Assembly: GCA_965370045.1 (NCBI GenBank)
Contig: CBDUSI010000001.1
Span: 18,691 to 82,690 of the forward strand
Length of the DNA: 64,000 nucleotides
Source of the DNA: an uncultured bacterium
GTDB lineage: Bacteria; Planctomycetota; SZUA-567; JAKLDR01
Reading direction: 5' to 3'
This document shows, in pieces, positions 1 through 37,496 of the stretch; within the stretch, counting starts at the first letter, position 1; each line of letters starts with the position of its first letter. Below the pieces are notes generated by a model. That model had not been told where the DNA came from. It saw only the letters and a list, made by a program, of their open reading frames with translations, and ran no database searches. The position numbers and the translations under genes are program-made.

Positions 1-459
1 GGTCTTCTGGCGGTGGCGCAGTATCTGGTAGGCCTCCTCGCGCTCGCGGCCCACCAGCCAGGTGATGCGCCGGTCGGAGAAGACCTCGCGCAGGTCGCGC
101 AGCTCGGCGGCGGCGCGGAGCATCGCCGGGTCCTTCTCGAGCAGAACTATCTCCGCCTCGGAGTTGCAGCGCTCCAGCAGGACCTCCAGGTGGTAGCCCA
201 GCCCGAAGCCCAGCACCAGGAAGCCCTGCAGGCCCTGGGGGTCGACCTCGCCGATCAGCTTCTCGGCCTCGCCGCGCGGGGCGTACTTGCTGTGCAGGGT
301 GGTGGCGGTGCCGTCCTGGTGGGTAACCCGCAGGGTCCAGTCGTCGTCGCGGGTTTCAATCTGCTCGGCGCCGGGCAGCGGCCCGGCGGCGGCGACGGCC
401 TCGGCCAGGGCGGGGACGACGCCCCGCAGGGTGGCCAAGTTCTGCTCCAGGCGGCTCAT
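1..459 (-). CDS. hypothetical protein, 3' part only; the gene runs off the window start
   Basis: Minus-strand reading frame starts at ATG 459 (MSRLEQNLATLRGVVPALAEAVAAAGPLPG...) and is open to position 1. It is absent from the ORF track only because the window edge truncates it. It sits 8 nt downstream of the 468..1055 minus-strand gene, so the two are probably an operon. Confidence 0.4.
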   Translation of the reverse strand, partial: MSRLEQNLATLRGVVPALAEAVAAAGPLPGAEQIETRDDDWTLRVTHQDGTATTLHSKYAPRGEAEKLIGEVDPQGLQGFLVLGFGLGYHLEVLLERCNSEAEIVLLEKDPAMLRAAAELRDLREVFSDRRITWLVGREREEAYQILRHRQKT

Positions 460-467
460 GTGATCGT

Positions 468-1055
468 TCAGGTCCCGGCCATGCCCTTGACCATGGCGGC
501 CAGCTTCTCGAGTTGCCCGGCCAGCTCGTACTCGGCGAGGTCCGCGGCGGCCACCGCGTCCTCGCTCTTGAGCGCGGGGGGCAGCTCGCGCATCGCGTTG
601 ATCACGCCCTCGACGCCGGCCTCGAAACCCTCCGGCGCTGGGGCGGCGGCCAGGGCCGCGGCGGTGATCAGCGCCTGGATCAGCTGCCCGTAGGCGCCGA
701 CCACGCCTTCAAAACGTTCGATGCCTTCCTTGCGCTCGCCGCCGCGCAGCAGGTCGGCTATCTTGCGGACCTCGTCGGCCAGCTGGCCCAGCGCGCTGGC
801 CGCCTCGCCCAGCCCGTGCCGGCCCCACTCGGCGGCCGGGGCGGTGATGACCTCCACCTTGCCAAGCTCGGCGTGCGCCCGCGCGGCAGCCTCGACCTCG
901 GCGTCGGGCATCAGCTCCTCGCCGTCGAGCTTCACGGTGGTGATGACCAGTTGCCCGCCGGCCAGCTCGTCGCGCAGCGCGGCCAGCAAATCCCCCAGGC
1001 TCGGCCCGGTCCCCTCGGGAACCTGCCGCACCTGCCCGTCGACGTAGAGTTCCAA
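468..1055 (-). CDS. hypothetical protein (195 aa, Ala/Glu-rich)
   Basis: Complete ORF with codon usage typical of this high-GC genome. The overlapping plus-strand ORFs (13..693, 513..1238) are repetitive low-complexity antisense artefacts. No recognisable domain. Confidence 0.45.
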   Translation of the reverse strand: MELYVDGQVRQVPEGTGPSLGDLLAALRDELAGGQLVITTVKLDGEELMPDAEVEAAARAHAELGKVEVITAPAAEWGRHGLGEAASALGQLADEVRKIADLLRGGERKEGIERFEGVVGAYGQLIQALITAAALAAAPAPEGFEAGVEGVINAMRELPPALKSEDAVAAADLAEYELAGQLEKLAAMVKGMAGT

Positions 1056-1327
1056 GCGTCACCTCCTCGCAGTCCCGGCATTCTTCACAATATGCGCGCG
1101 GCGTCAAGAGGTCGGCCACGCCGCCGGAGAAGCCCGGTTTGGTCGGTTACGCCTGGCTGGCGCTGCCCTCGGCGGCGCGGACCCTCAAGCTGGCCGGCCC
1201 GGTTGCCTGCTGGCAGCCGGGTAAAATCAGAAGAATAGTCCCGGAACGCCGAGTCGCGGCGCGTAAGTCGCCCTTATGCGCGCGTTACGGCAATGTGCAC
1301 TATTCTGGCGATTTGCGCATATTCTGC

Positions 1328-1356
1328 TTGACATTCGTGGTAGTTCGGTGTATAAT
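1328..1356 (+). promoter_or_regulatory. perfect sigma70 consensus promoter: TTGACA (1328-1333), 17-nt spacer, TATAAT (1351-1356)
   Basis: Read directly as cTTGACAttcgtggtagttcggtgTATAATac. Nearly the same element recurs at 36467-36495, sharing cttgacattcg and tataataca, upstream of a paralogous gene. Confidence 0.7.
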
Positions 1357-1373
1357 ACATGCAGGTGACGATG

Positions 1374-2111
1374 ATGAGCGATATGACGCGCGAGCAGTAC
1401 GAGACCCTGGCGTTGGACCGCCTGGCCGAGCTGGCCCGCAGCGAGAACGAGCGAATCGCGCTGGAAGCCGCGCGGACGCTCCTCGTTCACCTGCGGCTTT
1501 CTTTACCACCAAGACACCAAGACACAAAGGACAACGGAGAGGCTGGTCGCGGCGAGGCGGTCAATCACGCTCTCGCTTCTCTGCCCGCGCTCCCGGGGTA
1601 CGGGTCCGTCGCGGCGGGGGCCGTTTCGCAGGAAGGTGAGGGATGTTCGCGAGACAATAGTTCTTCTTCGTGCCTTGGTGACTTGGTGGTTGATAAGGAC
1701 GTTGAAAGAGCCCGGGAGCATGTCCTGCGGGCGATGGACAGGTGCGCGGGATTGCTTGAACACGAAAACCCCTTCGTCGTCCTGCGCGCCGCGCGGGAAA
1801 TCTTGCAGCATTACCGTCATCTGTGCCGCGAGCGGTTCAAGTGGACGGCGTGGTCCGAGGTGAGAGAACGCAGCGCGAAGAAGCGGCGGGGCGTGGCCGC
1901 GCTCGCCAAGGTCGCGGGCCTGGGCCGCGATCTCGCGGGGATTCGCGGGGCCATCGACCGGGAAGAGAACTCCGAGGGCGCGGAGGAATACCGGGTCTGT
2001 CCGCCTCCTCCGATTGACTGGGACGCCACTCAGGAAGGCCCTTCTGGGTCTGCGTCCCACGAAGAAGGGGAGGGCAGCCCGCCCGACCCCGACGAACGCG
2101 CGCCGCCCTGA
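1374..2111 (+). CDS. hypothetical protein, paralog A of the 36550..37191 gene (shared SENER-I/V-AL-x-AA-x-x-LL motif)
   Basis: ORF track 1359..2111. The ATG at 1359 lies inside the -10/TSS region, so MSD at 1374 or MMSD at 1371 is the more likely start (aggtga 1363-1368 just upstream). It shares the N-terminal MSD and the ENER(I/V)AL(E/R)AA..LL motif with the 36550 gene. Pro/Glu/Gly-rich acidic C-terminus. Confidence 0.55.
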   Translation: MSDMTREQYETLALDRLAELARSENERIALEAARTLLVHLRLSLPPRHQDTKDNGEAGRGEAVNHALASLPALPGYGSVAAGAVSQEGEGCSRDNSSSSCLGDLVVDKDVERAREHVLRAMDRCAGLLEHENPFVVLRAAREILQHYRHLCRERFKWTAWSEVRERSAKKRRGVAALAKVAGLGRDLAGIRGAIDREENSEGAEEYRVCPPPPIDWDATQEGPSGSASHEEGEGSPPDPDERAPP

Positions 2112-2178
2112 GTTGGGAGGCGGGGGGCGTGAAGGGTGAAGAGTGAATAGCGGGGAATGGAGCGCTCTCGACTGGCTC

Positions 2179-2202
2179 CTCCAGACTCCGGACTCCAGAC
2201 TG
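2179..2202. repeat. 24-nt element of three tandem heptamers: ctccaga ctccgga ctccaga ctg
   Basis: Direct heptamer repeats read in the sequence. A 22/24-identical copy (ctccagactccagcctccagactg) lies at 37424-37447. Both copies are downstream of the paralogous MSD..ENER genes. This copy is 41 bp upstream of the -35 of the 2243 promoter. Confidence 0.6.
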
Positions 2203-2242
2203 AACAACTGGCCACTGACCACCGGCAACCGAACAGGATGTC

Positions 2243-2271
2243 TTGACATGTTGCCGTATGACCGGTAGATT
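2243..2271 (+). promoter_or_regulatory. sigma70-like promoter: TTGACA (2243-2248), 17-nt spacer, TAGATT (2266-2271)
   Basis: tcTTGACAtgttgccgtatgaccggTAGATT, followed by the RBS gaggagg and the ATG at 2299. Confidence 0.5.
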
Positions 2272-2298
2272 AGTGTAGGCGAGAGGAGGCGTGGACCG

Positions 2299-2712
2299 AT
2301 GGATGTTAAGGGAGCATATCGCGCTTTTGGACCACTCACGATTGCCATTCGCAGGCGCAAGGGCCGCTATGAAGCTCTGATCAAGGAGTTTGCCATCTGG
2401 GCGGAGGCCCACAGTCAAGTCCGGGTATGGACCGAACTGGAAAAGCTGGTGGCGGGCTACATACAGTCTCAGGCTGTTGCGCTGAGCCGCCACGATTACC
2501 GCAAGGTGCGTTTCGGCAATCCCGTTCCTCGCGAAGAGTGGGAGAAGTGGCGTCGGGGAGAAATCTACAAGACGGCCATCGAGGTCCATGTCACCCAGGC
2601 CAAGATGCCGTACAAGAAGGTCCGGCCCCTGCCCGACATCCGGGAGTTCATCAGCATTGACGAGCCCTTCGTCAGACAGCGGGATGTGCAACTGAGCCCC
2701 ATTGGGGCCTGA
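2299..2712 (+). CDS. hypothetical protein; possible HicB-like partner (antitoxin candidate) of the downstream HicA
   Basis: Complete 137-aa ORF with a strong RBS (gaggagg). Its stop is 5 nt before the hicA-like gene, so the two are probably co-transcribed. No clear DNA-binding domain can be recognised. The HicB assignment is inferred from position only. Confidence 0.45.
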   Translation: MDVKGAYRAFGPLTIAIRRRKGRYEALIKEFAIWAEAHSQVRVWTELEKLVAGYIQSQAVALSRHDYRKVRFGNPVPREEWEKWRRGEIYKTAIEVHVTQAKMPYKKVRPLPDIREFISIDEPFVRQRDVQLSPIGA

Positions 2713-2717
2713 CCCCC

Positions 2718-2954
2718 GTGCCTTCGCCCATACGGAAAGGCGCCTTCAAGCGCAAGCTGCGCCGCCTGGGCTGCACCCTGACCAAAGAACGGGGGAAGGG
2801 AAGTCATTTCTGCGCCGAGCGTGTTCTTGAGGACGGCACGGTGCGGACCTACTACTTCCCTACGGTTCACGGCCGCCATGTCAAGGCGGAGTACGTAAAA
2901 TACGGCGTGATTGCGGCCCTGGGGTTCACCCGAAAAGACTGGAACAACGCTTGA
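2718..2954 (+). CDS. hicA: HicA-family (YcfA-like) mRNA interferase toxin
   Basis: 78 aa. KRKLRRLGCTLTKERGKGSHFCAE matches the HicA/YcfA dsRBD-like core with the conserved G-S-H. Size and basic composition are typical of the family. Confidence 0.7.
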   Translation: MPSPIRKGAFKRKLRRLGCTLTKERGKGSHFCAERVLEDGTVRTYYFPTVHGRHVKAEYVKYGVIAALGFTRKDWNNA

Positions 2955-2983
2955 TTGACTTGCACCCTTCCAGGCGCCATACT
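2955..2983 (+). promoter_or_regulatory. candidate promoter TTGACT-N17-CATACT upstream of the lipoprotein gene
   Basis: ttgaTTGACTtgcacccttccaggcgcCATACT, about 130 nt upstream of the ATG at 3112. A 10-bp tandem repeat ccggattccg x2 (3038-3057) lies in the leader. Confidence 0.3.
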
Positions 2984-3111
2984 GGATGGGCAGAAATGGG
3001 AGCACCGTGAGGGCTGCGGGAAATGGGTGAACTGTCCCCGGATTCCGCCGGATTCCGAATTGTGGGAACCTTCCGGAGTGCTGAGCGTCTAAAGACAGGG
3101 GAGGGACTACT

Positions 3112-4536
3112 ATGACAATGAAGACCCTCGTCGTGGCCGCCAGTGCGGCACTGGCCGTTCTCTTGGCGGCTGGCTGCCAGCCTCATCCACCCGAGCCCGT
3201 CACAGCAGTACTGGCTCCGCTACCAGATCCCGGCCAGCCCTGGCCGAAAGGAGATACAACCGTTCTGGCGCGCTGCGTGAAGACGGACTTCTACGCGACC
3301 ACGACTCGCGGACAGTGGCGCTCGGAGTGGTTCTTCTACAGGCTTCACGTCATACGAACGGAGAGAGGACGCTGGCCACACTCCGAGGTGAAGCTTGTGT
3401 GGCGGAAGCGGCTTCCCCTCCCCGGCTCGAAGTGGCGCTACAAGATGGCAGCTGATCCTTTTCACCTCAGCGGTGTCTTTGCCATCGACCTGGATACCAG
3501 CAAGAGCCCGGCACAAATTGTGGGCCATGAGCGACGCAGTTGCCTCCCGCCGCACGCCAAGCTGACGCTGTCTGCGCTGCAGAAGCCGAGCAAGGTAATG
3601 CTGGACCGCATGACTGCTAAGGTCCATGAACGGGCGAGACGAGTGGGAACACGCACCGATCTGCGGATAAGGTTCGTGGAGGCAACACGCGACAGCTATG
3701 TTGTCTATCACGATTACGAAACCTTGGTGTTGGACAAGAAGTCGCTGAAGGTCAGTCCTTTCGGGGTCAAGAAATGCGCTGGTGCCTTCTGGCAGGAGGG
3801 GCCCTGGTACTGGAAGCGCACATATCCCCGCGCCAAGCTGGGCCTGAGCGGCAAGGTCGCGGACGTCCGCTGCGGACCGTGGATAGCCATCAGTTGCGGA
3901 GCGGCTACCGGCATCCTGGAAGGCGATGTCTTCGAAATACGGCACGGTGGCAAGAAGCTGGGGCGTGCTAAGGTCTCTACGGTCTGGAACAAGTTCGCGG
4001 GACTCAAGCCGTTGGACTCGATGCGCTGGAAAGCTGGTGACGATGCCGTGCTGGTTCAACTGGCGCCGAAGAAGCCGATCAACAAGACACCCTACGCAGA
4101 ACACTTGACAGGCACTTGGCGTGATGGGCAAGCTTCCTTTGACTTTAAGATTCTCAAGGGAAGGCGGCGAGGGTTCTTCAAGGCAACGATCACGATCCGC
4201 AATCTCACAGACAAGCCCCTGTTGTTCCCGACGCCGATGTTGATGCCGGCCGCCGGCGATACCAACAAGAACAACATACGGGTCTACGATGCGAAAGGCA
4301 ACAAGTTAGGATTCGGCGCCTCACATCCGCATAGTGATGGCTTAAGGCCGGTGGTCGAGATTCCGGCGCAGACCTCCAGGTCATGGAGCTTCCAGTTGAA
4401 GAAGTACTGGCCGCAGATGTCCTCGCCAGGTGTCTACGCCGTCGAGTTCTGGTACTTCTCCAATGAGAACCATCTCTTGGCTACGTGGAAGGGGCGAGTG
4501 AAGATGTACCACTTACTGATCAAGAGTGGGAACTAG
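3112..4536 (+). CDS. hypothetical lipoprotein (474 aa), noticeably lower GC than its surroundings
   Basis: Lipobox LLAAGC after an N-terminal signal peptide. RBS ggggaggg 6 nt upstream. No recognisable domain. GC is roughly 55-58% against about 70% elsewhere. Confidence 0.6.
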   Translation: MTMKTLVVAASAALAVLLAAGCQPHPPEPVTAVLAPLPDPGQPWPKGDTTVLARCVKTDFYATTTRGQWRSEWFFYRLHVIRTERGRWPHSEVKLVWRKRLPLPGSKWRYKMAADPFHLSGVFAIDLDTSKSPAQIVGHERRSCLPPHAKLTLSALQKPSKVMLDRMTAKVHERARRVGTRTDLRIRFVEATRDSYVVYHDYETLVLDKKSLKVSPFGVKKCAGAFWQEGPWYWKRTYPRAKLGLSGKVADVRCGPWIAISCGAATGILEGDVFEIRHGGKKLGRAKVSTVWNKFAGLKPLDSMRWKAGDDAVLVQLAPKKPINKTPYAEHLTGTWRDGQASFDFKILKGRRRGFFKATITIRNLTDKPLLFPTPMLMPAAGDTNKNNIRVYDAKGNKLGFGASHPHSDGLRPVVEIPAQTSRSWSFQLKKYWPQMSSPGVYAVEFWYFSNENHLLATWKGRVKMYHLLIKSGN

Positions 4537-4719
4537 CGGATCGCCGATGACCGCCCCCGCCCCTTCGTGGAGACTGAAGCAATCCGGGGCCGCTGACCGA
4601 TAAGACACCCGACAGACGGGGCGGGCGGTAGGTTCCTCCCGACGGCAACTAGCAACCGGCTACCGGCTACCGGCTCAGAGCCCCTTGCGGTCCCGGCTGC
4701 GGCGGTCCTTGACCAGGCG

Positions 4720-5682
4720 TCACTCCGCCTTGTCGTTCGAAAGTGTTTCGCGCGCTTCCTCGACGTCACGCGCGATCTGCTCGACCAAGACCCGGTCGGA
4801 GCTGAAGCGCCGCTCGTCGCGCAGCTTCTTCACGAACTCCACCTCCACGGTCTGGCCGTAGAGGTCGCCGCCGCCTTCCAGCAGGTGGGTCTCGACCAGG
4901 AGATCCGGTCGCAGGCCGTCGGGGAGAGCCGGCGTGCCGGTCGGCCGGAAGCCCACGTTAGTAACTGACTTCAGCGCCGCGCCGCCTTGCACGCGCGCCC
5001 AGGAGGCGTAGACCCCCATGGGCGGGCGCACCTCGCGGAGCAGGTCCAGGTTGACGGTGGGGAAGCCCAGCTCGCGCCCGCGGCCCCGGCCGGGCACCAC
5101 CGCGCCAAGCACGCTCACCCGCCGGCCCAGCAGGCACTCGGCCAGTTCCAGATTGCCATCCTGGATGGCCCGGCGGACTCCTGAGCTGGAAACCACCTTG
5201 CCGCATTCCTCCACCGGTCCCACGTGGCGGACCTCGAAGCCCAGCCTCTTCCCGATGTCGCGCAGCTCCTCGAAACCCGCCGCCCCGCCGCGGCCCAGCC
5301 GCGCGTCGTGGCCCAGCACCAGGCCCCGGGCTTTGAAGCCCGTTGACAGGTATCGCTCGGCGAAGTCCCCGGCGCTCAACGCGGCCAGCTCGGCGCTGAA
5401 CTCCAGCTCGAGGACCAGTTCGATGCCCAGCCGGCCCATCAGCGCCGTGCGGTGCTCGGGGCTGGTCACGAGGTCGGCCTTCTCGGCCCGGCCCAACACG
5501 CTTCTCGGCGGGCGGGTGAAGGCCACCGCCGCGGGCCGAGCGCCCAACTCCCGCGCCCAGTTGACCACTTCGCCGAGCACCGCCGCGTGGCCCACGTGCA
5601 CCCCGTCGAAGGTGCCCACCGTCACCACCGTCCCGGCGTGGCGGTCGGCGGCCAGCTCCTCCAGCGAGTGGCAGACGTTCAC
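4720..5682 (-). CDS. ribF: bifunctional riboflavin kinase / FMN adenylyltransferase
   Basis: N-terminal GTFDGVHVGH nucleotidyltransferase motif plus a C-terminal riboflavin-kinase domain. GTG start 6 nt after the stop of the upstream pfkB-like gene. Confidence 0.9.
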   Translation of the reverse strand: MNVCHSLEELAADRHAGTVVTVGTFDGVHVGHAAVLGEVVNWARELGARPAAVAFTRPPRSVLGRAEKADLVTSPEHRTALMGRLGIELVLELEFSAELAALSAGDFAERYLSTGFKARGLVLGHDARLGRGGAAGFEELRDIGKRLGFEVRHVGPVEECGKVVSSSGVRRAIQDGNLELAECLLGRRVSVLGAVVPGRGRGRELGFPTVNLDLLREVRPPMGVYASWARVQGGAALKSVTNVGFRPTGTPALPDGLRPDLLVETHLLEGGGDLYGQTVEVEFVKKLRDERRFSSDRVLVEQIARDVEEARETLSNDKAE

Positions 5683-5688
5683 GGCGGA

Positions 5689-6912
5689 TCAGCCTTCCTT
5701 GCGGGCTTCCAGCGGCGCGCTGCGCAGCATCCCGCGCCAGTCGCCGCGGCGGGCCAGGAAGGACTTCAGATTCTCGCGGTCGAGGATGCCATACTTCGCG
5801 CCCATGATGGTGACCACGCTGGCCGCGTTGGCCGAGGCCCAGGCCAGCGCGCGGCCCACGTCGTCGGGGTCGTCGATCAGCGCGGCCACGAAGGTCGCGC
5901 CGAAAGCGTCGCCCGCGCCCAGCGAGCAGACTACCGGCACCTCGAAGACCGGCATGATGTATCGGGTCTCTCCGTCGAAGCACTGCACCCCGCGCCCCCC
6001 GTCGGTGATGACCACGGCTCCCGGGCAGTACTCGCGGATGCGCGCGAAGAGTTCGTCGAGGTTGCGGGCCCAGGGCTCCATGAGCACCGCGCGGGTGGGG
6101 CAGGCCTCCACGCAGGCGTTGCAGCGCACGCAGCGCTCCTCGCCGACCACGCGGATGCGGTCGCCGTCGCGCAGGAATATCCCCTGCGAGCAGGCCTCCA
6201 CGCACTGGCCGCACAGCGAGCAGCGTTCTTCGTCCACGTAACGGCGCAGGTCCGTGGCCCCCACCAGCTTCTCGGCCTCCTCGCGGTTGAGGATCAGAAT
6301 ATCGGTCGCGCCCAGGACGTCCTTGAAGCCATCCAGCCCCTGGCGGAACTGCGTCGAGCCGGGATTGACCGCCAGCTTGACGCCCTTCTCCTTGGCGAAT
6401 TCGGCGATGCGGGAGTAGAGCTCGGCGGCCTTGCCGTGCAGGGAGCACAGGTATATCCAGCTGGAAGCGGCCAGCCGGTCCCAGTCGATCATCTCCTCGG
6501 TCAGAAGGGAACTCGCGCCCCGGTAGGTCAGCACGGTGCGCTCGCCGTCGAAGGAGCTGATGATCACCGAGTAGCCGCTGCGCTCCGACCCGTGGCGGGC
6601 CAGCAGCGAGGCGTCGGCGCCGTGCCCGACGAGCTCCCTCTCGATGTCCGCGGCGGTGGCGTCGGCGCCCAGGCAGGCCACGGCGGCGACCTTGAGCCCC
6701 AGCGTGGCCATGGCCGCCGCGGCGTTGGTGGCCCCCCCGCCGGTGGTGAAGAAGATGTTGCTGACGTTCTGCTTGCCGCCGTGGTCCAGGCAGAGGTAGG
6801 CGGTTTCGCCGCGCATCTCCTTGATGTTCATGATTTTGGCCAGGTCCGAGCGCACGAATACGTCCCGGGTGGCGCTGCCCACGGTGATAACGTCGCATGC
6901 GGCCTGGGTCAT
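5689..6912 (-). CDS. PfkB-family (ribokinase-like) carbohydrate kinase with an inserted 2x[4Fe-4S] ferredoxin domain
   Basis: N-terminal GG dipeptide region (TTGGGATNAA), C-terminal PfkB motif SLGAGDAFGATFVAAL, and an internal CSLCGQCVEACSQG ... CVRCNACVEACP segment with two CxxCxxCxxxC(P) cluster motifs (about nt 6090-6230). Confidence 0.85.
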   Translation of the reverse strand: MTQAACDVITVGSATRDVFVRSDLAKIMNIKEMRGETAYLCLDHGGKQNVSNIFFTTGGGATNAAAAMATLGLKVAAVACLGADATAADIERELVGHGADASLLARHGSERSGYSVIISSFDGERTVLTYRGASSLLTEEMIDWDRLAASSWIYLCSLHGKAAELYSRIAEFAKEKGVKLAVNPGSTQFRQGLDGFKDVLGATDILILNREEAEKLVGATDLRRYVDEERCSLCGQCVEACSQGIFLRDGDRIRVVGEERCVRCNACVEACPTRAVLMEPWARNLDELFARIREYCPGAVVITDGGRGVQCFDGETRYIMPVFEVPVVCSLGAGDAFGATFVAALIDDPDDVGRALAWASANAASVVTIMGAKYGILDRENLKSFLARRGDWRGMLRSAPLEARKEG

Positions 6913-7079
6913 CGTCTAATTCCCCGATCTGCTCCCGGAAAGGCACCTTACGGGGCCATGATAGCACCGGGCCGCTGGGAGGTCAAATAGGCTAAGATTC
7001 AGGTGGTTCTTGGGCGATATATTATATAGTGTAGGGTGTTCTAGCCGCGCGTCATCGCGCCGCGCGGCGGGAGGCATGC

Positions 7080-7652
7080 GTGGCACATATCCCTCGAGTC
7101 ATGGTCGTCGAGGACGATCCCCGTATCCGGCGCATCGTCACCAAGGTGCTGACCAGCTGCGGGATGATGGTGCGCGCCGCCTCCGACGGCGTCGACGCGC
7201 TCAACGCCTTCACCCAGAGCCGAAACGAGCCCGAGCTGGTCTGCGCGGACATCAAGATGCCCAACATGGACGGCAAGGAGTTCGCCAAGCGCCTGCGCCA
7301 GCAGGGCGTCAACGCGCCCATCATCTTCATATCGGGGACCATTCAGAAGGCCCAGGAGGGCTACCGGGCCAAGAGCCACATATACCTGATGGCCAAGCCC
7401 TTCAGCCCGACCAAGCTCGCGGAAATCGCCAAAGAGATGATGGCCAAGCCCCGCCCGCAGATGGGCCCGCGGCTGGCCCTCCCGCCGGCCCAGCAGCCCC
7501 AGGACCTGCCCCCGGCGCCCACGCTCCCGCCCAAGGGCTTCGACTCCGGGGAGTTCCCGTCCCAGAAGCCCCCCCCTCCGAAGCCGAAGCCCCCCTCACC
7601 GTTCGAAAAGTTCCTCTCCCCGAAGCAGAAGCCCCCGTCTCCGAAGCAGTAA
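7080..7652 (+). CDS. response regulator, CheY-like receiver domain with a proline-rich C-terminal tail
   Basis: VMVVEDDPRIRRI...ADIKMPNMDGKEF...IIFISG has the receiver-domain Asp pocket and phospho-acceptor Asp. The C-terminus is PPKPKPPSP low-complexity with no output domain. Confidence 0.8.
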   Translation: MAHIPRVMVVEDDPRIRRIVTKVLTSCGMMVRAASDGVDALNAFTQSRNEPELVCADIKMPNMDGKEFAKRLRQQGVNAPIIFISGTIQKAQEGYRAKSHIYLMAKPFSPTKLAEIAKEMMAKPRPQMGPRLALPPAQQPQDLPPAPTLPPKGFDSGEFPSQKPPPPKPKPPSPFEKFLSPKQKPPSPKQ

Positions 7653-7686
7653 TTCTTATTGCTTTATTATGGAAGGCGTTCGGCGG

Positions 7687-8010
7687 TCACTCGCCGGGAT
7701 TCTCGACTACCTCGTAATCCATCATCCCGTCGACCTTCATGCGCTCCAGGAACCTGACCAGCGCCGGGCTTACCAGTATCCGGAGCGACCGGCCGGTTTC
7801 CGCGGCGCGCGCGCAGGCCGCCACCAGCGCGCCGATCTGCGGGCTGGCCACGTACCCCAGGCCGCCGAGGTCGATTACCAGGCGGGGCTCGTCCGAGTCG
7901 AACAGTTGGCGGCAGGCCATCTCCAGCTCGCGGCCGTGAAAGGGCAGCTCCTTGGTGGCGGTGAGCCGGCCGCCCGTGATCTTCAGGTGGGGAAAGCTTT
8001 CAGCGGTCAT
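7687..8010 (-). CDS. STAS-domain protein (anti-sigma-factor antagonist, SpoIIAA-like)
   Basis: 107 aa. The LVIDLGGLGYVASPQIGALV pattern is typical of STAS/anti-anti-sigma proteins. Convergent with the response regulator. Confidence 0.7.
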   Translation of the reverse strand: MTAESFPHLKITGGRLTATKELPFHGRELEMACRQLFDSDEPRLVIDLGGLGYVASPQIGALVAACARAAETGRSLRILVSPALVRFLERMKVDGMMDYEVVENPGE

Positions 8011-8272: not shown

Positions 8273-9844
8273 ATGGCTGCCAAGAGGAAACGCACCAAGA
8301 AGAAGGCCGGGGTGAAGAAGCCGGCGGGCGGGACGCGTTCTGCATCGAAGGCCCCGAAAGCGACCCGCAAGATCCCCAATGGAGGCGGGGGCGAGCTGGT
8401 GGACATGGACCAGGCCATCCGCCTGCTCAAGACCACGCGGCCTACTTTCTACCGCTGGTTGCGCGCCGGCAAGGTCAAGGGCATGAAGGTCGGCCGCCAG
8501 TGGCGCTTTTACAGGAAGGACATAGAAAGCTTCCTGAAGGGCGAGGAGCCCCGTGTTGACCTGCCGGTGAGCATCGGGCCTCTGGTCGCCGAACTCACCG
8601 AGCGCGGCGAGGAGTTGGGCGTCAAGGACCTGCCGCGTCCCGGGAAGGGCGGCATGGACGGGGTCATTGAACTGATGTTTGGCCTGGCAGTGGGGCTGCA
8701 GGCCTCGGACGTGCACATCGAGCCCTTCTCAACCAAGGCCGGGCAGGACACCGTCGGCATGATCCGCTACCGGATTGACGGCGTGCTCCACCCGGTTGCG
8801 GAATTTGACATGCGCCTGCTGCCGGCGCTGATCGAGCGCCTCAAGGCCGCGGCGTCCTGCGACGTGCGCGAGAAGCGCAAGCCCCAGGACGGCCGGATCG
8901 TCCTCAAGATCGGAGACCGGGCCCTGGACCTGCGCGTCAGTTTCGTGGGCCCGGTGATGGGCGAGGCGGCCACGATCCGCATCCTCGACTCCAGCGCCGT
9001 GTCGCTGAAGCTGGAGCGCATCGACTACGCGCCGCGTGATCGCGAGCGGCTGCAGAAGGCCATTCGCTCTCCGTGGGGACTGGTGCTGGTCACCGGGCCC
9101 ACCGGCTGCGGCAAGACCACGGTGCTCTACTCCTGCCTCAACGAACTCACCGGCCCGGGGGTCAAGACCATGTCGCTGGAGGATCCCGTCGAGTACCTGC
9201 TGCCCTGGGTGACGCAGATAGCCATCAGGCCGGCGGAGGGCCTGACCTTCGAGCGCGGCGCGAGGTCGGTCCTGCGCTCCGACCCCGACGTGATAATGGT
9301 CGGCGAGATCCGCAACCGGGAAACCCTGGCCATCTGCCAGCAGGCCGCGCTCACCGGCCACCTGGTCTTCACCACGCTGCACGCCGACGAGGCGGCCAGC
9401 GCGCTGAAGCGCATGGTGGAGATCGGCAGCGAGCCCTTCGTGGTCGCCGAGTCCACCCGGCTGGTCCTGGCCCAGCGCCTGGTCCGCAAGCTCTGCCCCG
9501 AGTGCCGGGAGCCGCAGGAGCCCTCCGAGGGCGTTCTCAAGCACGCCGCGGAGCTGGCCCGCGCCGGGGGCCTGGGCTGGGAAACGCTCTCCGCGAAGTT
9601 CCACGGCCCGGTCGGCTGCAAGCGCTGCGGCCGGACCGGCTTTCGGGGCCGCACGGTCATCACCGAGGTGCTGGAGATCACCGCCGAGGTGGGCAACGCC
9701 CTGCGGCGCGGCGCGACGGTCGACGAGCTGCGCTCGGTGGCGGTCAGCCAGGGCATGACCACCATGGCCGCCGACGGCATCCGCCGCGCGGCGCGCGGAG
9801 AGGTGGTGCTCGCCGAGGTGTTACAAGTCTTGGGGTTGAGGTAG
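8273..9844 (+). CDS. GspE/PilB-family secretion ATPase with an N-terminal Lys-rich tail and an excisionase-type HTH domain
   Basis: Walker A GPTGCGKTT, Asp/His boxes, and the tetracysteine motif CPEC...CKRC typical of GspE/PilB. The N-terminus is MAAKRKRTKKKAGVKKP... followed by MDQAIRLLKTTRPTFYRWLRAGKVKGMKVGRQWRFYRKDIESFL (HTH_17/excisionase-like). Start 8273 chosen over ORF-track 8237 because of the AAGGAG RBS. Confidence 0.85.
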   Translation: MAAKRKRTKKKAGVKKPAGGTRSASKAPKATRKIPNGGGGELVDMDQAIRLLKTTRPTFYRWLRAGKVKGMKVGRQWRFYRKDIESFLKGEEPRVDLPVSIGPLVAELTERGEELGVKDLPRPGKGGMDGVIELMFGLAVGLQASDVHIEPFSTKAGQDTVGMIRYRIDGVLHPVAEFDMRLLPALIERLKAAASCDVREKRKPQDGRIVLKIGDRALDLRVSFVGPVMGEAATIRILDSSAVSLKLERIDYAPRDRERLQKAIRSPWGLVLVTGPTGCGKTTVLYSCLNELTGPGVKTMSLEDPVEYLLPWVTQIAIRPAEGLTFERGARSVLRSDPDVIMVGEIRNRETLAICQQAALTGHLVFTTLHADEAASALKRMVEIGSEPFVVAESTRLVLAQRLVRKLCPECREPQEPSEGVLKHAAELARAGGLGWETLSAKFHGPVGCKRCGRTGFRGRTVITEVLEITAEVGNALRRGATVDELRSVAVSQGMTTMAADGIRRAARGEVVLAEVLQVLGLR

Positions 9845-26062: not shown

Positions 26063-27697
26063 CTACTTAGAGTGCTTCTTGGCCAGCTCATCGGCGCGGG
26101 CCTGGAGCGTGGCGGCCAGCTTGGCCTTGCCGTCGGCCTTGGCCTTGGCGGCCAGCCCGGCCAGCTTCTTGGCGAACTGGGCGCCCTGGCCGGCCTTGAG
26201 GTACAGCTTCTCGGCCTTCTTCCAGGCGCCGGAATCCAAGTCCAGGTGGGAAGCGACCAGGTAGTACGTGGAGGCGTCCACCAGGTCGGCGGGCTCGGTC
26301 GCGAACTTCTCGAGCAGCTCGCCGATGCGCAGCACGGCGGCGGCCGCGTCCTTCCCGCGCGAGCCGTCGGCGGTCCTCATGGTAATCGCCGCGTAGTAGT
26401 AGGGCAGGGCGGCCTCGGCGCGCCCCCGGGCGGTCTTGCCCGCGGCCTTCTCCAGCGCCTGGGCCTTGGCGAAGGCGGCTCCGGGAGCGGCCACGTCGCC
26501 GACCTTGACGGACACGAACTTCCTGATGGGAACGACCGCCGGCTTCTTGGGCTCAGGCTTTTTCGGTTCGGGCTTCTTGGGTTCCGGCTTCTTCGGCTCG
26601 GGCTTCTTGACCGCCTTGGCCTTGTACTTCTCGACCTTGGCGATCATCGCCGCGGCTTTCCGGTCGTAGCCGGTGCCCGCGCCGGACTTCTTGGCCACGC
26701 CGAAGGCCTTGATGGCCGCGTCGTAGTCCTTGGGATTCTTCTTGTAGTCGGCCAGCGCCATCTCGTAGAGCGCCCGGGCATTGGCGGTCTTGGCACGCTT
26801 GGCCGCGGCGGCCTTGAGTACCTTGAGCTTGGCGATCATCTTGTCAGCGCTCTTCTCGTACCTGGTGCCGGCCGCGGCCTTCTTGACCTCCTGGTAGCGC
26901 ACGATGGCCGCGTCGTAGTTCTTGCGATCGGCCTTCCAGGCTTTCTCCGCCGCGACCAACATCCCCTTGGCCTGACGGGCCTTGGCCACCGCGGAGTCGA
27001 CCTTCTTGGGCTCCGGCTTCTTGGGTTCCGGTTTCTTGGGCTCGGGCTTTTTCGGCTCGGGCTTCTTGGGCTCCGGCTTCTTGACCGCCTTGGCCTTGTA
27101 CCTCTCGACCTTGGCGATCATCGCCGCGGCTTTCCGGTCGTAGCCGGTGCCCGCGCCGGACTTCTTGGCCACGCCGAAGGCCTTGATGGCCGCGTCGTAG
27201 TCCTTGGGATTCTTCTTGTAGTCGGCCAGCGCCATCTCGTAGAGCGCCCGGGCATTGGCGGTCTTGGCACGCTTGGCCGCGGCGGCCTTGAGTACCTTGA
27301 GCTTGGCGATCATCTTGTCAGCGCTCTTCTCGTACCTGGTGCCGGCCGCGGCCTTCTTGACCTCCTGGTAGCGCACGATGGCCGCGTCGTAGTTCTTGCG
27401 ATCGGCCTTCCAGGCTTTCTCCGCCGCGACCAGCATCGCCCTGGCCTGACGCGCCTTGGCCACCGCGGGGTCGACCTTCTTGGGCTCGGGTTTCTTGGGT
27501 TCCGGTTTCTTCGGTTCCGGCTTCTTCGGCTCGGGCTTCTTGACCGCGGGAAGCGGCAGCTTGGTCCCATCGGCCGGACAGTACTTGGTGCCGTCCTTGA
27601 GCTTCCGCTTGCAGGTAGGACACTCCACCGCAAGGGCCAGCGCGGCGGTCAGGAAAACCGCAGCGACGGCGATAATCGAGGCCTTGATAAGACGCAT
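26063..27697 (-). CDS. membrane-anchored TPR-like repeat protein with (KKPEP)n linkers and an internal 158-aa tandem duplication
   Basis: ATG 27697 with RBS gggagg. N-terminal TM anchor, CPTC..YCP zinc-ribbon-like segment, then two near-identical 158-aa units separated by KKPEPKKPEP stretches, then a TPR-like C-terminal domain. The track ORF extends to 28666, but that part is antisense to the heparinase gene. Confidence 0.65.
   Translation of the reverse strand: MRLIKASIIAVAAVFLTAALALAVECPTCKRKLKDGTKYCPADGTKLPLPAVKKPEPKKPEPKKPEPKKPEPKKVDPAVAKARQARAMLVAAEKAWKADRKNYDAAIVRYQEVKKAAAGTRYEKSADKMIAKLKVLKAAAAKRAKTANARALYEMALADYKKNPKDYDAAIKAFGVAKKSGAGTGYDRKAAAMIAKVERYKAKAVKKPEPKKPEPKKPEPKKPEPKKPEPKKVDSAVAKARQAKGMLVAAEKAWKADRKNYDAAIVRYQEVKKAAAGTRYEKSADKMIAKLKVLKAAAAKRAKTANARALYEMALADYKKNPKDYDAAIKAFGVAKKSGAGTGYDRKAAAMIAKVEKYKAKAVKKPEPKKPEPKKPEPKKPEPKKPAVVPIRKFVSVKVGDVAAPGAAFAKAQALEKAAGKTARGRAEAALPYYYAAITMRTADGSRGKDAAAAVLRIGELLEKFATEPADLVDASTYYLVASHLDLDSGAWKKAEKLYLKAGQGAQFAKKLAGLAAKAKADGKAKLAATLQARADELAKKHSK
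26530..27555. repeat. tandem direct duplication, period 474 bp, copies about 98% identical (within a coding region)
   Basis: Unit starting at 26606 (cttgaccgccttggccttgtacttctcgacc...) repeats at 27080 with only a few substitutions. The units are flanked by ggcttcttgggytccggyttctt (KKPEP-encoding) short repeats. Confidence 0.85.
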
Positions 27698-31493: not shown

Positions 31494-33847
31494 ACCGCCG
31501 CCTCTCTGCCCTCTTCCTGGCCGCCGGGCTCTGGAGTTCCGTAGCTGGCGCCGCCGGCGCCGGCGAGAAGCCGCTCAGCGTCGCCGACGAGCAGTACCGG
31601 CTGGCCGGGGCGCTCTTCGCCCGCGGCGAGTTCGCCCGCGCCGCGGCCACCTATGCGTCTTTCGCGCGCAGGCACCGCCGGGATCCCCGCGCTGGCGAGG
31701 CCCACTTCCGCTCTGCCGAGGGCCTCTACCGCGCCGGGGAAAGCAAGAAGGCCCGCAAGGCCTTCGAGAAATGCCTGACTCTCAAGCTGCCCGCCGCGCG
31801 CCTGGCCGCCGCGCGCCTGCGCATCGGGAGCATCTCTTACGCGGCCGGCGACGCGGAGGGCGCCGCGGCGGCGCTCTCGAAAGTGGACATGAAGCGGCTG
31901 CCCGCCGAGGCCCGCCGGGCGGCGGCCTACTTCCTGGGCGCCTCTCTCCTGGAACTGGGCCGCAAGAAGGAGGCCGGACCGCATCTGGCCCAAGCGGCCG
32001 GCTCGAAGCAGGCGGCGCTGGCCGCGCCGGCGCTCCTGGAGCTGGCCCGGATGGAGAGCGAAGCCGGGCGCCGCGCGGGGGCGGCGGGGCACCTCGGCAA
32101 GCTCCTCAAGCGCTTCCCCGGCGCGCCGGAGGCGGCGGAGGCCGGCTTCCGCCTGGCCGAGATTACCCGCCTGAGGGGCAAGCCCGCCGCCGCGCTGGCG
32201 CTATACGCGGCGGTGCTCAAGCGCTCCCCGCCGGGCGAGCTCGCCGCCCGCGCGGCGCTGGGCGCGGCCTGGTGCCACCTGGCCGGGAACGACGCGCGCG
32301 GGGCGTTGAAGATGGCCTCGATGGCCGCGCGCGCGCCGAAGCTGGCCACCGAGAGCCGCTACGTGACCGGCCTGGCGCGGATGGCCGCCAAGAAGTACGC
32401 CGAGGCGGAGGCCGCCTTCGCGGGAATCCTCAAGCTCGCCCCCCGGGGGCCACGCGCCGAGTCGGCCGCCTGCCGCCTGGTCTGGTGCCGGCACCTGGCC
32501 GGCCGCGGCGCGCAGGTGGGGCCCGCCGCGCGCGAGTTCCGGGCGCGCTTCCCCAAGAGCAAGCTGGCCGGCGAGGTGGCCCACGTCGAGGGCCTGGCCG
32601 CCGCGGCGGGCGGTGACGTCGAGGGCGCGCTCGCGGCCCTGGACAAGGCCGCCGCCGACCCCAAGAGCCGCTACGCCGCCGAGAGCGCCTACCGCGCCGC
32701 GCTGCTGTGCTCCGAGAAGGGCCGCCCCAAACAGGCCCGGGCGCGGCTGGAGCGCCTGGTGCGCCTCCATGCCAAGCACCGCCTGGCCGACGCCGCGCTG
32801 GTCCGGCTCGGCGAACTGGCCCTGGGCGCCGGCGACGCCAAGGGCGCCGCCAAACACTTCGACACGCACCTGGCCAGCTTCCCGGCCAGCAAGCTGCGCC
32901 CGGCGGCGCTGCTGGGCCGGGCCCTGGCCGCGGCCGCTGCCAAGGACTGGACCGGCTTCCAGCAGCGCTGCGCTCAACTGGCCAGAGCGCGTCCCGGCGA
33001 TCCGGCCGGCGTGGAGGCCAGCTACTGGCTGGCCTGGAACTACGAGCGGCTCAAGACCTACGACCAGGCGACGGCGGCCTACGTCCGCCTGATTGCCAAG
33101 TACCGCAAGCCACCGCTGGTCTACGAGTTCAAGTTCCGGCTGTCCTGCGCGTACTACCTCAACGGCAACTACCCCAAGGCCGCCGAGGGCTTCCTGGCGC
33201 TGGCCCGCTCGGGCAAGCGCCGGCTGCCCGCCGAGGGGCTGCTGTGGCTGGGCCAGTACCTGGGCGGCCAGGGCCGCGACAAGGAGGCCGCCGAGGTCTA
33301 TGCCCTGGCGGCGGGCTCCAAGGATCCGGCCACCCGCGCCGAGGCCCTGCTGGCCCTGGGCCACCAGGCCCTGCGCGGGGGACGGGCCGCCGGGGCAGTG
33401 GTCCTTTACCGCAAGCTCCTGGCCGAGATTCCCAAGTCCGTGCGCGCCGACGACGCCCGGCTGGGCCTGGTCCGCGCGCTGCGCGAGTCGGGCAAGGCCG
33501 CCGAGGCCCGCAAGATCGCGGCTGGCCTGGTGACCTCGAAGAACGAGCGGCTGCGCCTGGCGGCCCGTGGCGAGCTGGCCCTGGCGGACCTGGCCGTCGG
33601 GAAGGCCGCCGAGGCCGTGGCGGGCCTGGCCCCCCTGGCGACGCTGTACGACGATTCGGAGCTGGTGCCCCGCTGGCTGGCTGGCCTGGCCGCGGCCGAG
33701 GAGAAGCTCAAGAGGAAAGCGGCGGCGACCAGGTGGTACCGGGAACTCATCACCCGCTACCCGGCCAGCCGCGAGGCCAAGGCCGCGTCGGCCAAAACCA
33801 AGATCCCCCTGCCCGAGCCGTCGTCCAAGACCGGGGAGAAGTTCTAA
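31490..33847 (+). CDS. secreted tetratricopeptide-repeat protein (785 aa)
   Basis: Signal peptide, then many Ala/Leu-rich TPR-like units. Start overlaps the exbD stop (TTGA). Stop overlaps the ribE start (TAATG). Confidence 0.7.
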   Translation: MNRRLSALFLAAGLWSSVAGAAGAGEKPLSVADEQYRLAGALFARGEFARAAATYASFARRHRRDPRAGEAHFRSAEGLYRAGESKKARKAFEKCLTLKLPAARLAAARLRIGSISYAAGDAEGAAAALSKVDMKRLPAEARRAAAYFLGASLLELGRKKEAGPHLAQAAGSKQAALAAPALLELARMESEAGRRAGAAGHLGKLLKRFPGAPEAAEAGFRLAEITRLRGKPAAALALYAAVLKRSPPGELAARAALGAAWCHLAGNDARGALKMASMAARAPKLATESRYVTGLARMAAKKYAEAEAAFAGILKLAPRGPRAESAACRLVWCRHLAGRGAQVGPAAREFRARFPKSKLAGEVAHVEGLAAAAGGDVEGALAALDKAAADPKSRYAAESAYRAALLCSEKGRPKQARARLERLVRLHAKHRLADAALVRLGELALGAGDAKGAAKHFDTHLASFPASKLRPAALLGRALAAAAAKDWTGFQQRCAQLARARPGDPAGVEASYWLAWNYERLKTYDQATAAYVRLIAKYRKPPLVYEFKFRLSCAYYLNGNYPKAAEGFLALARSGKRRLPAEGLLWLGQYLGGQGRDKEAAEVYALAAGSKDPATRAEALLALGHQALRGGRAAGAVVLYRKLLAEIPKSVRADDARLGLVRALRESGKAAEARKIAAGLVTSKNERLRLAARGELALADLAVGKAAEAVAGLAPLATLYDDSELVPRWLAGLAAAEEKLKRKAAATRWYRELITRYPASREAKAASAKTKIPLPEPSSKTGEKF

Positions 33848-34488
33848 TGTTCACCGGGATAATCGAGGCCACCGGCAAGCTGCTCGGCGTCGAGAAGCGC
33901 GGCGGCGGCTTCCGCCTGAGCGCGGAACTCGGTCGCCTGGCCGAAGGCACCGCGGTCGGCGACAGCATCGCGGTCTCCGGCCCGTGCCTGACTGTCTCCC
34001 GGCTCGAAGGCTCGGTCGCCGGGTTCGACGCCGTATTCGAAACCGCGGAGCGCACCACCATTCCGTCCTGGCGCGCGGGCCGCGAGCTTAACATCGAGAG
34101 GGCCCTGGCCCTCGGCGCGCGGCTGGGTGGCCACGTAGTCACCGGGCACATCGACGGCCGCGCCCGGGTCCTCAACGTGAAGGAAGTCGGCGACGGTCGG
34201 GAGGTCGACTTCTCGATCCCCGCCGGCTGCGAGCGGCTGGTCGCCGGGAAGGGCTCGGTGGCGCTGGACGGCGCCAGCCTGACCGTCGCGCGGCTCTTGA
34301 GTGACAACAGCTTCCGCGTCGCGCTGGTGCCCCATACTCTGGGGAGCACCACGCTGCGCGGACTCAGGTCCGGCGACGAGGTCAACTTCGAGGCGGACAT
34401 AATGGCCCGCTACGCGGCGCGCCTCCTGGGCAAGGACTTCGGCGGCGGACTCACCGAGGACCAGCTCCGCGAAGCCGGGTTCATGTAG
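33847..34488 (+). CDS. ribE: riboflavin synthase alpha subunit
   Basis: MFTGIIEATG N-terminus and duplicated lumazine-binding halves. 214 aa. Confidence 0.9.
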   Translation: MFTGIIEATGKLLGVEKRGGGFRLSAELGRLAEGTAVGDSIAVSGPCLTVSRLEGSVAGFDAVFETAERTTIPSWRAGRELNIERALALGARLGGHVVTGHIDGRARVLNVKEVGDGREVDFSIPAGCERLVAGKGSVALDGASLTVARLLSDNSFRVALVPHTLGSTTLRGLRSGDEVNFEADIMARYAARLLGKDFGGGLTEDQLREAGFM

Positions 34489-34597
34489 GGAAGAGTCCCC
34501 GTGCGCTGGCGTCGGCAGTCCCGGGAAGGCTGGCGGGTGCCGGTGAAGAAATGTCGGATACAAGGAACTCTTCCTCCCGCTGGAAACGGAGGCATAG

Positions 34598-36295: not shown

Positions 36296-36466
36296 GCCGC
36301 CGGAATTCCGCGCCCGGAAGTCAAGACTTGCCTCAGTTGCCGGTGGTCGATTGCCGGTTATCAGAAGTCGCGAGCGTACGCCGGCCTCGATATCACCCTT
36401 TCGTCGCATCTAACCGACAGCCATACAGTCACTTACGCCTCATCAGCATTATTCTGTATTATCTTC

Positions 36467-36495
36467 TTGACATTCGGGGCGCTTCGCGCTATAAT
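36467..36495 (+). promoter_or_regulatory. perfect sigma70 consensus promoter: TTGACA (36467-36472), 17-nt spacer, TATAAT (36490-36495)
   Basis: tcTTGACAttcggggcgcttcgcgcTATAATacagc. Near-duplicate of the 1328-1356 promoter, with a shared upstream attctg motif. Confidence 0.7.
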
Positions 36496-36549
36496 ACAGC
36501 ATACACTGACCACTTGCGGCCCAAAGGGGCTATCTTAGGGGGGAGAACC

Positions 36550-37191: not shown

Positions 37192-37423
37192 GTCACGGGC
37201 TTTCAGGGGCGCAGGTCATGACAAAACGGGAGATTCCGAACCACGGAGGACACGGAGGAGAAGAGACGGTTGCCACTCGGAGCGGCGCCTTCAGGTGCCC
37301 GACGAGGGGCAATTCACTTGCCAGAACCACGCCAGGGAGGGCGGAACCTCGACGGTTTGACACGAGGTCAAAAGACATCGTTTGGGGAAGGTAAGCCGAA
37401 GGAGAGAGCCCGGGACCAAGAGA

Positions 37424-37447
37424 CTCCAGACTCCAGCCTCCAGACTG
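37424..37447. repeat. 24-nt heptamer-repeat element, second copy: ctccaga ctccagc ctccaga ctg
   Basis: 22/24 identical to 2179-2202. Followed by a second small tandem repeat gttgaaaag x2 (37461-37478). Confidence 0.6.
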
Positions 37448-37496
37448 TGCCCCTTGGCGTCTTGGCGGTTGAAAAGTTGAAAAGCGGCCCGGCGGT

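Follow-up and report, generated by a model that had tools for sequence, protein, structure and literature searches.

A duplicated consensus-promoter module encodes two paralogous protein families, possibly derived from small terminases, at defence islets of an uncultured planctomycete

Introduction

The small terminase (TerS) of phages is usually encoded just upstream of the large terminase (TerL), binds pac or cos DNA as well as TerL, and combines an N-terminal helix-turn-helix (HTH) with a central helical domain through which it forms a ring of 8-12 subunits, and satellites encode packaging-interference proteins such as Ppi and Rpp. Here, we describe a gene module in a 64,000-nt stretch of DNA from an uncultured planctomycete (contig CBDUSI010000001.1 of assembly GCA_965370045.1, hereafter the window), in which two genes, called A and B, each follow a sigma-70-type promoter of perfect consensus and encode small helical proteins that may descend from a TerS-like protein. 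To our knowledge, the mobile elements and phages of Planctomycetota are almost unexplored.

Among the closest described systems are the phage-inducible chromosomal islands (PICIs), which carry a small terminase that redirects packaging together with accessory and defence genes, and whose core comprises an integrase, a regulator of the AlpA, Stl or MerR type and a primase-replicase, with TerS (PMC10085698). The phage-inducible chromosomal minimalist islands (PICMI) were dropped as a comparison, as terS is absent from them (PMC10803314). Putative mobile promoters are defined as stretches of >50 nt at >=80% identity that precede non-aligning coding sequences, with whole-gene duplications excluded (Matus-Garcia et al. 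2012; PMC3488235). The literature on orphan terminases and planctomycete palindromic repeats yielded nothing relevant.

Results

Genes A and B share a homologous promoter region

Exactly two TTGACA-N17-TATAAT sites occur in the window, both on the plus strand (Table 1), and none was expected by chance according to 100 dinucleotide shuffles of the window. The pair and its extended context, consisting of CTTGACATTCG, TTCG 4 bases before the -10 hexamer and then TATAATACA, were found as reported in a first-pass annotation of the window. The attctg motif that it described as shared is indeed present upstream of both promoters, with differing offsets: it abuts the -35 hexamer in A, where a second copy follows 20 nt further up, and lies 10 nt further upstream in B. 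From the spacing alone, transcription of gene A is predicted to start at ~1363, leaving a leader of only ~8 nt; an ATG at 1359 is too near the -10 hexamer to be on the transcript, and gene A runs from 1374. Gene B has a predicted leader of ~47 nt with a Shine-Dalgarno-like run (GGGGGGAG).

A search of 5.8 billion protein clusters returned 13 homologs of A and 12 close homologs of B. Most A and B homologs lie on other scaffolds of the metagenome assembly to which the window, as scaffold_47, belongs (ENA ERZ23499000, ZORZ22-1). The further copies that the first-pass annotation had proposed to look for were found, for A, at L002 (scaffold_143), L003 (scaffold_315) and at L005 and L006, both from a single metagenome-assembled genome of an uncultured Planctomycetia bacterium, and, for B, at L004 (scaffold_458) and L007 (scaffold_675). 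All of the evidence is drawn from a small number of metagenomic contigs, and their organisms are uncultured. The TTGACA-17-TATAAT promoter, or 11 of its 12 positions, is kept in all five A copies and in two of the three B copies (7/8 altogether), the L004 copy of B having a different 5′ end and N-terminus and no consensus promoter. A core, CTTGAC..TC.......TT.....TATAATA.A, is invariant across these five A and two B copies, and the promoters of A at L006 and of B in the window agree at 34/41 positions, spacer included. Similarity between A and B reaches ~170 nt upstream (alignment z of 5-10 against shuffles), and the CCGGTTGCC...TCAGAAG element found there, at the same distance from the -35 hexamer in both families, is also present at 36340-36370 of the window and at L007 5666-5689.

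The invariant core and the upstream similarity identify the promoters as homologous parts of a duplicated cassette, as had been proposed. The suggestion of a mobile or duplicated regulatory cassette holds for the duplication and not for a free regulatory element, since the whole gene module spreads with flanking DNA. The rarity of consensus promoters, on which that suggestion leaned, was overstated, as four further sites with >=11/12 positions occur in 159 kb of related loci, for example upstream of PEPCK and pilM. The exact promoter pattern had no matches in GTDB genomes; a degenerate pattern gave at least 120 matches in metagenomes, which appear to be chance matches, and no A or B relative was encoded among the matches listed. 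Conservation of consensus strength in 7/8 copies would imply selection for high, probably constitutive, expression.

The A and B proteins are related and under constraint

Both proteins start with MSD and carry the motif SENER(I/V)AL(E/R)AA..LL, as first noted, and BLASTP aligned them over this short motif only (14/26 identical, E 4e-4). Profile alignment with hhalign covered 86 columns, placing A 120-205 on B 75-163 (84% probability, E 7e-6), and comparison of A with the wider B family placed A 12-38 on B 70-96 (E 1.7e-5). When 2,594 six-frame open reading frames (ORFs) of the window and loci L002-L011 were searched with hidden Markov models (HMMs) representing the B family and the wider family, the five A ORFs were the sole matches apart from B relatives, and in each of them two domains were recognised (E 1e-8 to 3e-3). 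Judged by these comparisons, A and B are distant paralogs, in keeping with the first-pass annotation, and the promoter, the upstream element and the downstream repeat that they have in common are independent evidence for one origin of the A and B modules.

Between the B copies of the window and L004, differences at codon positions 1/2/3 number 28/10/67, and the reading frame of A is kept through linkers of 211, 181 and 196 nt. This third-position bias and the kept frame indicate that both genes are coding and under constraint, and rule out A as two separate genes or as non-coding. Because about a quarter of the codons (~25%) are synonymously different between copies, the copies are old. The flanking genes differ at every A/B locus, with the exception of L006, whose left flank is that of the window (86% identity). 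No housekeeping genes are duplicated among the A/B scaffolds, and the tetranucleotide correlation among the A/B loci is 0.98-0.99.

Remote homologs of B lie in the position of a small terminase

The AlphaFold2 (AF2) model of B has a pLDDT of 72, rising to ~90 in a three-helix HTH at residues 3-47 (nt 36556-36690; helices 3-22, 27-34 and 38-47), which agrees with the HTH-like N-terminus suggested earlier. Two further helices, 49-78 and 82-148, follow; the turn that joins them bears the motif LLESENERVALRAAQALL (nt 36781-36834), and the second is the long helix that ends at residue 148. In this monomer model the long helices are compatible with a TerS ring oligomer, which is not proof of one.

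A B-family profile run against 1.84 billion representatives gave 97 matches, all but two of them remote, over B residues ~7-95/130, that is, the HTH and the hairpin. Among 40 B relatives HTH_23 is the commonest Pfam match (12/40), and four TerS PHROG families together match 9/40 with E down to 2e-5. Genomic context was viewed for three remote homologs, two of which, P0026 at L008 and P0027 at L010 and L011, overlap the beginning of a TerL gene. The TerL at L008 matches phrog_38 with E 9e-36 and, in a second piece, with 4.5e-9; the one at L010 and L011 has 435 aa, matches phrog_38 with E 2e-69 and has annotated TerL counterparts in 1,179 phage records. B itself is 43% identical to P0027 over 86 aa (E 4e-10) and 40% identical to P0026. 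The overlap of these remote homologs with the TerL start places the B family in the TerS position and suggests that the family is TerS-like. The first-pass statement that the proteins have no recognisable family is therefore not entirely accurate for B, whose N-terminal ~95 residues fall in an HTH_23-like family with members that can sit directly upstream of TerL. An IMG/VR contig (L135) with a related TerL has an HTH-type small protein upstream that the family HMM does not detect, which supports the TerS gene position and not homology to B.

The TerS-like and TerL pairs stand without any other recognisable phage gene at L010 6144-7902, L011 1018-2776 and L008 7319-9074. The L008 TerL is divided between two ORFs, and in L010 and L011 the pair is followed by DUF4351, ATPase, GNAT and HATPase (with DUF4325) genes.

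Gene A carries two hairpins around a palindromic linker

The AF2 model of A is poor (pLDDT 55, too poor for a fold search) and consists of helical hairpins at residues 6-42 and 102-200 joined by a disordered linker at 43-101; no HTH was seen in this low-confidence model. Hairpin 1 carries the motif SENERIALEAARTLL (nt 1440-1484), and hairpin 2 carries a weaker second copy, LLEHENPFVVLRAAREIL (residues 127-144, nt 1752-1805), that the first-pass annotation had missed, together with a long helix. The linker is formed by the longest local inverted repeat of the 64 kb window, which lies in frame in the coding region and has arms of tandem octamers (CACCAAGA x2); A paralogs have a different palindrome at the same linker site. 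The RNA fold z of the palindrome is -2.9 in the window and -4.4 in L002. Its arms recur as an intergenic hairpin at L004 2234-2350.

Window positions 1120-1509 are 85% identical to L002 9746-10136, where the DUF2752 gene that survives in the window as a remnant is intact (9414-9842) upstream of the A copy. By this identity, the remnant arrived together with the A module, from a locus like L002, indicating that the module spread by segmental duplication with flanking DNA and not as a clean element with defined ends. The 3′ flank of A matches L002 10761-10809, L007 5623-5683 and window 36336-36348 and 37421-37447. The repeat that follows gene B at 37263-37384, intergenic there, is 77% identical to L003 10592-10712, an in-frame insert in an A paralog.

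One further ORF, P0024 on a 1,135-bp ENA contig, opens with an Fpg/Nei glycosylase N-terminus, passes at ...LLVHLRLT into an A paralog's linker and C-terminal module, and is either a rearrangement or an assembly chimera.

Defence cassettes and repeats surround the copies

Both genes lie in regions where the GC content is below the 0.67 of the whole window, with 0.61-0.64 between 1 and 5 kb and 0.53-0.63 between 34 and 37 kb. The GmrSD-type restriction enzyme gene directly upstream of B has a GC content of 0.53, suggesting recent horizontal acquisition. At other loci gene A is followed by a type IIG restriction-modification enzyme (L003, PADLOC 2e-290) or by a complete PDC-M45 candidate system (L002, genes B, C and A with 1e-55, 1e-62 and 4e-35), and gene B of L007 adjoins a genuine HicA gene, which is accompanied by a small partner gene. 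The adjacency to defence or toxin genes put forward earlier is thus solid for GmrSD and recurs with type IIG, PDC-M45 and HicAB; the HicA-like ORF after gene A of the window is a weak case (HicA_toxin E 0.09, with 13.3 bits where the cutoff is 27), with a HicA-like stretch containing GSH.

Mosaic repeats, namely (CTCCAGA)n, CGGTTGCCGGTKGTCAG, GCGCGGAAGTCAAG and TTCTGCCCATYCAGTATGGC, bracket the A and B genes and the defence or toxin-antitoxin cassettes (Table 1). The (CTCCAGA)n repeat occurs four times in the 159 kb of A/B loci, always no more than 250 nt from an A or B gene. The block between GmrSD and the B promoter also matches L007 5599-5689, and its positions 36331-36349 agree at 19/19 with the reverse complement of L003 14156-14174, a stretch that immediately follows the type IIG gene. 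In L002, 26 nt separate (CTCCAGA)n from a TTGACT-17-CATACT repeat; in the window the distance is 769 nt and the gap is filled by a cassette with a 137-aa ORF and the HicA-like ORF, which identifies this cassette as an insertion inside the repeat block. No recombinase that would explain the insertion was found nearby, no Rfam family was detected in either region at gathering or permissive thresholds, and no tRNA genes were found, which leaves no tRNA-type attachment (att) site.

The TTGACT-17-CATACT repeat, followed by GGATGGGCAGAAATGGG, represents a second promoter-like family, found also at L002 10815-10861 and L007 5617-5575 (reverse strand). Since the genes behind it, that of a lipoprotein and those of the PDC-M45 system, are unrelated, it is nearer to a mobile promoter than is the promoter of A and B. 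Elsewhere in the window, tandem 474-nt units with 15-nt sub-repeats (GGCTTCTTGGGCTCC-like) at 26430-27560 probably code, on the minus strand, for a repetitive protein rich in Pro, Lys and Glu, and four diverged 75-nt direct repeats (TTCAGCGACACCTGGGC...) at 56780-58960 look like those of a propeller-type protein.

Table 1 Coordinates of the modules, their flanks and associated repeats; positions refer to the window unless another locus is named.
Feature	Position	Strand	Remarks
DUF2752 gene remnant (last ~28 codons)	1120-1205	+	stop TAG changed to CAG; carried with the A module
Upstream element CCGGTTGCC...ATCAGAAG	1199-1236	+	~100 nt before -35; common to B modules
AT-rich TATTCTG stretch	1300-1327	+	just 5′ of A promoter
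Gene A promoter (sigma-70-type consensus TTGACA-17-TATAAT)	1328-1356	+	kept in 5/5 A copies
Gene A (P0013), 245 aa	1374-2111	+	two helical hairpins, disordered linker, Pro-rich tail, no HTH
Palindromic insert forming the linker of A	1494-1701	+	42-nt arms (1494-1535, 1660-1701), 124 nt apart
Conserved 3′ flank of A module	2143-2231	+	GTGAATAGCGGGGAATGGA; (CTCCAGA)n 2176-2205; inverted CGGTTGCCGGTGGTCAG copy 2215-2231
Inserted cassette after A	2206-2954	+	TTGACA-17-TAGATT promoter 2243-2271; 137-aa ORF 2299-2712; HicA-like 78-aa ORF 2718-2954
Promoter-like repeat TTGACT-17-CATACT + GGATGGGCAGAAATGGG	2955-3000	+	before 474-aa lipoprotein gene (3112-4536)
GmrSD-type restriction enzyme gene	34598-36295	+	directly upstream of B; Pfam GmrSD_N 9e-29; PADLOC PDC-M55C 3e-36, HEC-05
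Repeat block between GmrSD and B promoter	36306-36370	+	GCGCCCGGAAGTCAAG, CCTCAGTTGCCGGTGGTCG, TTGCCGGTTATCAGAAGTCG
Gene B promoter (consensus)	36467-36495	+	kept in L007; L004 copy has different 5′ region
Gene B (P0001), 213 aa	36550-37191	+	HTH, helical hairpin, long helix, B-family-specific tail
3′ flank of B	37263-37447	+	~120-nt small repeat 37263-37384; (CTCCAGA)n 37421-37447
Mosaic repeats, window	2176-2231, 2955-3000, 4645-4675, 36306-36370, 37421-37447
Mosaic repeats, other loci	L002 10784-10861; L003 14148-14187; L007 5575-5690

Discussion

A duplicated and diverged module with an inherited consensus promoter, comprising two paralogous families and located at variable defence or toxin-antitoxin islets, is firmly supported by our analysis, and the descent of A and B from a planctomycete TerS-like HTH protein is reasonably supported. 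The module consists of an upstream region of ~170 nt, a sigma-70 consensus promoter, the gene of a small all-helical protein and a short downstream repeat. Its ancestor may have encoded a TerS-like protein in which an N-terminal HTH preceded an ARM/HEAT-like helical hairpin; B would have kept the HTH, and A would have lost it and come to carry the hairpin twice, around a linker tolerant of palindromic insertions. Duplication of the whole module together with flanking DNA preceded its divergence, which is why A and B have a promoter in common, and the copies lie at the junctions of variable cassettes (GmrSD, type IIG restriction-modification, PDC-M45, HicAB-like) bracketed by the same short repeats. 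By analogy with small terminases, B may bind DNA by its HTH and self-assemble by its hairpin, while A, without DNA binding, may co-assemble. As orphans without TerL, the two proteins might act on the packaging machinery of incoming or resident phages, interfering as decoys or marking neighbouring DNA for packaging, and would be no part of a virion-producing unit. The data show the structure and copy number of the module, purifying selection, the homology between A and B and between B and genes upstream of TerL, and the defence-gene neighbourhood; the oligomerisation, DNA targets, expression level and phage effect of A and B are inferred. Taken as a whole, a lineage-restricted multicopy module of orphan TerS-derived proteins tied to phage packaging or defence islets is the explanation that we tentatively favour, as a plausible one.

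A number of results count against it. No match to TerS was strong for B itself, which reached E 0.07, below threshold, with the TerS family phrog_2538 and matched nothing in Pfam or NCBIfam; neither A nor B had an above-threshold match in Pfam, NCBIfam or PHROGs, and PADLOC assigned neither to a family at E up to 0.01. Foldseek searches of the B model against PDB and BFVD gave nothing significant (best E 0.25 and 0.08); the weak fold matches were mostly HTH regulators, and those to small terminases, namely 2ao9 and the TerS entries of BFVD, had E >0.2 throughout. The shared motif resembles a single ARM/HEAT repeat; a PDB profile search with it matched only beta-catenin and designed ARM/alpha-Rep proteins (E ~1e-4) and no TerS, so that part of the A-B similarity could be a common helical-repeat motif. 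Adjacency to TerL was seen at 2/3 of the remote-homolog loci, P0033 (L009) being alone on a short contig, and as the TerLs beside P0026 and P0027 are 64% identical, these are related and not independent instances. Searches by tblastn with two TerLs found no TerL in the window or L002-L007, the gene tables held no portal, capsid or integrase gene beside the eight A/B copies, scans of IMG/VR found no relatives, and B and P0027 had no tblastn match in cultured-phage genomes. Finally, the A/B scaffolds may belong to one genome or to sister genomes, a placement suggested by composition only.

The alternative that survives best makes A and B ordinary host proteins specific to this lineage: B would be a transcription factor or nucleoid-associated protein and A its HTH-less partner or antagonist, neither would have a present phage link, and the TerL-adjacent relatives would be regulators or a separate branch. 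The dominance of HTH_23, HTH_28 and Sigma70_r4-type matches in the wider family, the prevalence of HTH regulators among the fold matches and the lack of nearby phage genes fit this, and the repeated TATTCTG upstream of both promoters could represent operators. Nevertheless, we consider it unlikely, if worth serious weight, because B relatives overlap TerL in a translational-coupling style at two distinct loci, the copies are numerous and fast-evolving in changing contexts with no consistent orientation to their neighbours, and consensus promoters would be unusual for an autoregulated repressor. A regulatory role had been put forward in the first-pass annotation too, next to candidate roles in anti-defence and element maintenance. 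If A and B are plain regulators, they represent a modest lineage-specific gene family.

That the copies are decaying, functionless prophage debris, and the promoter similarity merely leftover identity, appears improbable. Their orphan status, an A linker full of palindromic inserts and the chimeric or truncated copies P0024 and P0120 would be expected of debris, but the strong third-position bias, a frame kept through different linkers and a consensus promoter in 7/8 copies despite ~25% synonymous divergence would not. Slightly less probable still is that A and B are the packaging modules of minimal PICI-like phage satellites, with the adjacent defence genes as cargo. PICIs do combine a packaging-redirecting small terminase with defence genes (PMC10085698), and A and B adjoin defence cassettes bracketed by shared repeats; however, the islets measure no more than 1.5-3.6 kb, the repeats do not form clean direct duplications of the att type, and the gene tables show no integrase, AlpA/Stl-type regulator, primase-replicase or structural gene within 10 kb of any copy. 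The least credible explanation, independent sigma-70 consensus matches combined with a convergent ARM/HEAT-like motif and no true duplication, could appeal to the four other near-consensus promoters in 159 kb and to the beta-catenin ARM matches, and is largely refuted by the conserved spacer and flanks (34/41), the equidistant upstream element, the shared downstream repeat and HMM matches specific to A ORFs. The data on selection and conservation thus largely exclude both debris and coincidence.

If the favoured explanation, orphan TerS-derived proteins at defence islets, is true, a family of ~100 representatives without a curated profile would be the apparent small terminase of planctomycete phages, and its orphan, duplicated derivatives would be maintained with strong promoters at the very sites of defence-cassette exchange. 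This would help to locate defence islets and prophage remnants and would supply a testable candidate for terminase-directed interference or hitchhiking. In a bolder and rather doubtful version, A and B would be TerS-derived packaging mimics, highly expressed by defence cassettes, that either poison the phage terminase by co-assembly with the phage small terminase or, together with (CTCCAGA)n and CGGTTGCCGG, provide pac-like transduction signals. Were this so, poisoning would be a new defence principle, the pac-like version would be a minimal hitchhiking system that transduces adjacent defence cassettes without an integrase, and the bracketing repeats would mark an undescribed cassette-exchange hotspot in Planctomycetia. 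The promoters are also of interest as natural sigma-70 consensus promoters, seemingly in use in a planctomycete of 67% GC, and as possible genetic parts.

Comparison with known systems

The linker insert of A and the flanking repeats resemble repetitive extragenic palindromic (REP) sequences, bacterial interspersed mosaic elements (BIMEs) and miniature inverted-repeat transposable elements (MITEs) in being short, palindromic, multicopy and intergenic elsewhere, but their arms consist of tandem 7-9-mers, their sequence varies between copies and one lies in frame in a coding region. No gene of the RAYT/TnpA type turned up in the examined loci, in which no dedicated search for one was made. With putative mobile promoters the A/B promoter shares the presence of a homologous promoter at several loci of one genome. 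It was rejected as a member of that class (PMC3488235), as the gene is duplicated with the promoter, the A and B coding sequences are distant homologs, and the best A-B stretch is 34/41 with the rest gappy, which amounts to <50 nt at 80%.

Closer parallels are found in the TerS of PICIs and of Staphylococcus aureus pathogenicity islands (SaPIs), and in Ppi and Rpp, which, like the proteins proposed here, are TerS-like or TerS-binding and encoded outside phages in small islands with defence genes. Unlike at PICIs, the integrase, regulator and primase-replicase families are missing from the gene tables for ~10 kb around each copy, positions 1-8000 and 32000-42000 of the window contained no ORF that looked like an integrase, and there are no signs of excision or packaging. 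Since the PICI core is missing, the module is not a PICI-type satellite.

The A and B copies differ from HTH-type TerS in having no TerL or phage gene beside them and no curated TerS profile above threshold. A, moreover, has no DNA-binding domain and a doubled hairpin, and A and B are multicopy, with promoters of their own that match the consensus except in the L004 copy of B. In other respects the arrangement resembles HTH-type TerS: B has a three-helix N-terminal HTH followed by long helices, its size fits (~150-210 aa), its remote homologs overlap TerL from upstream, and TerS PHROGs are weakly matched in the wider family. What is new here is therefore best described as orphan, duplicated derivatives of a small-terminase-like protein.

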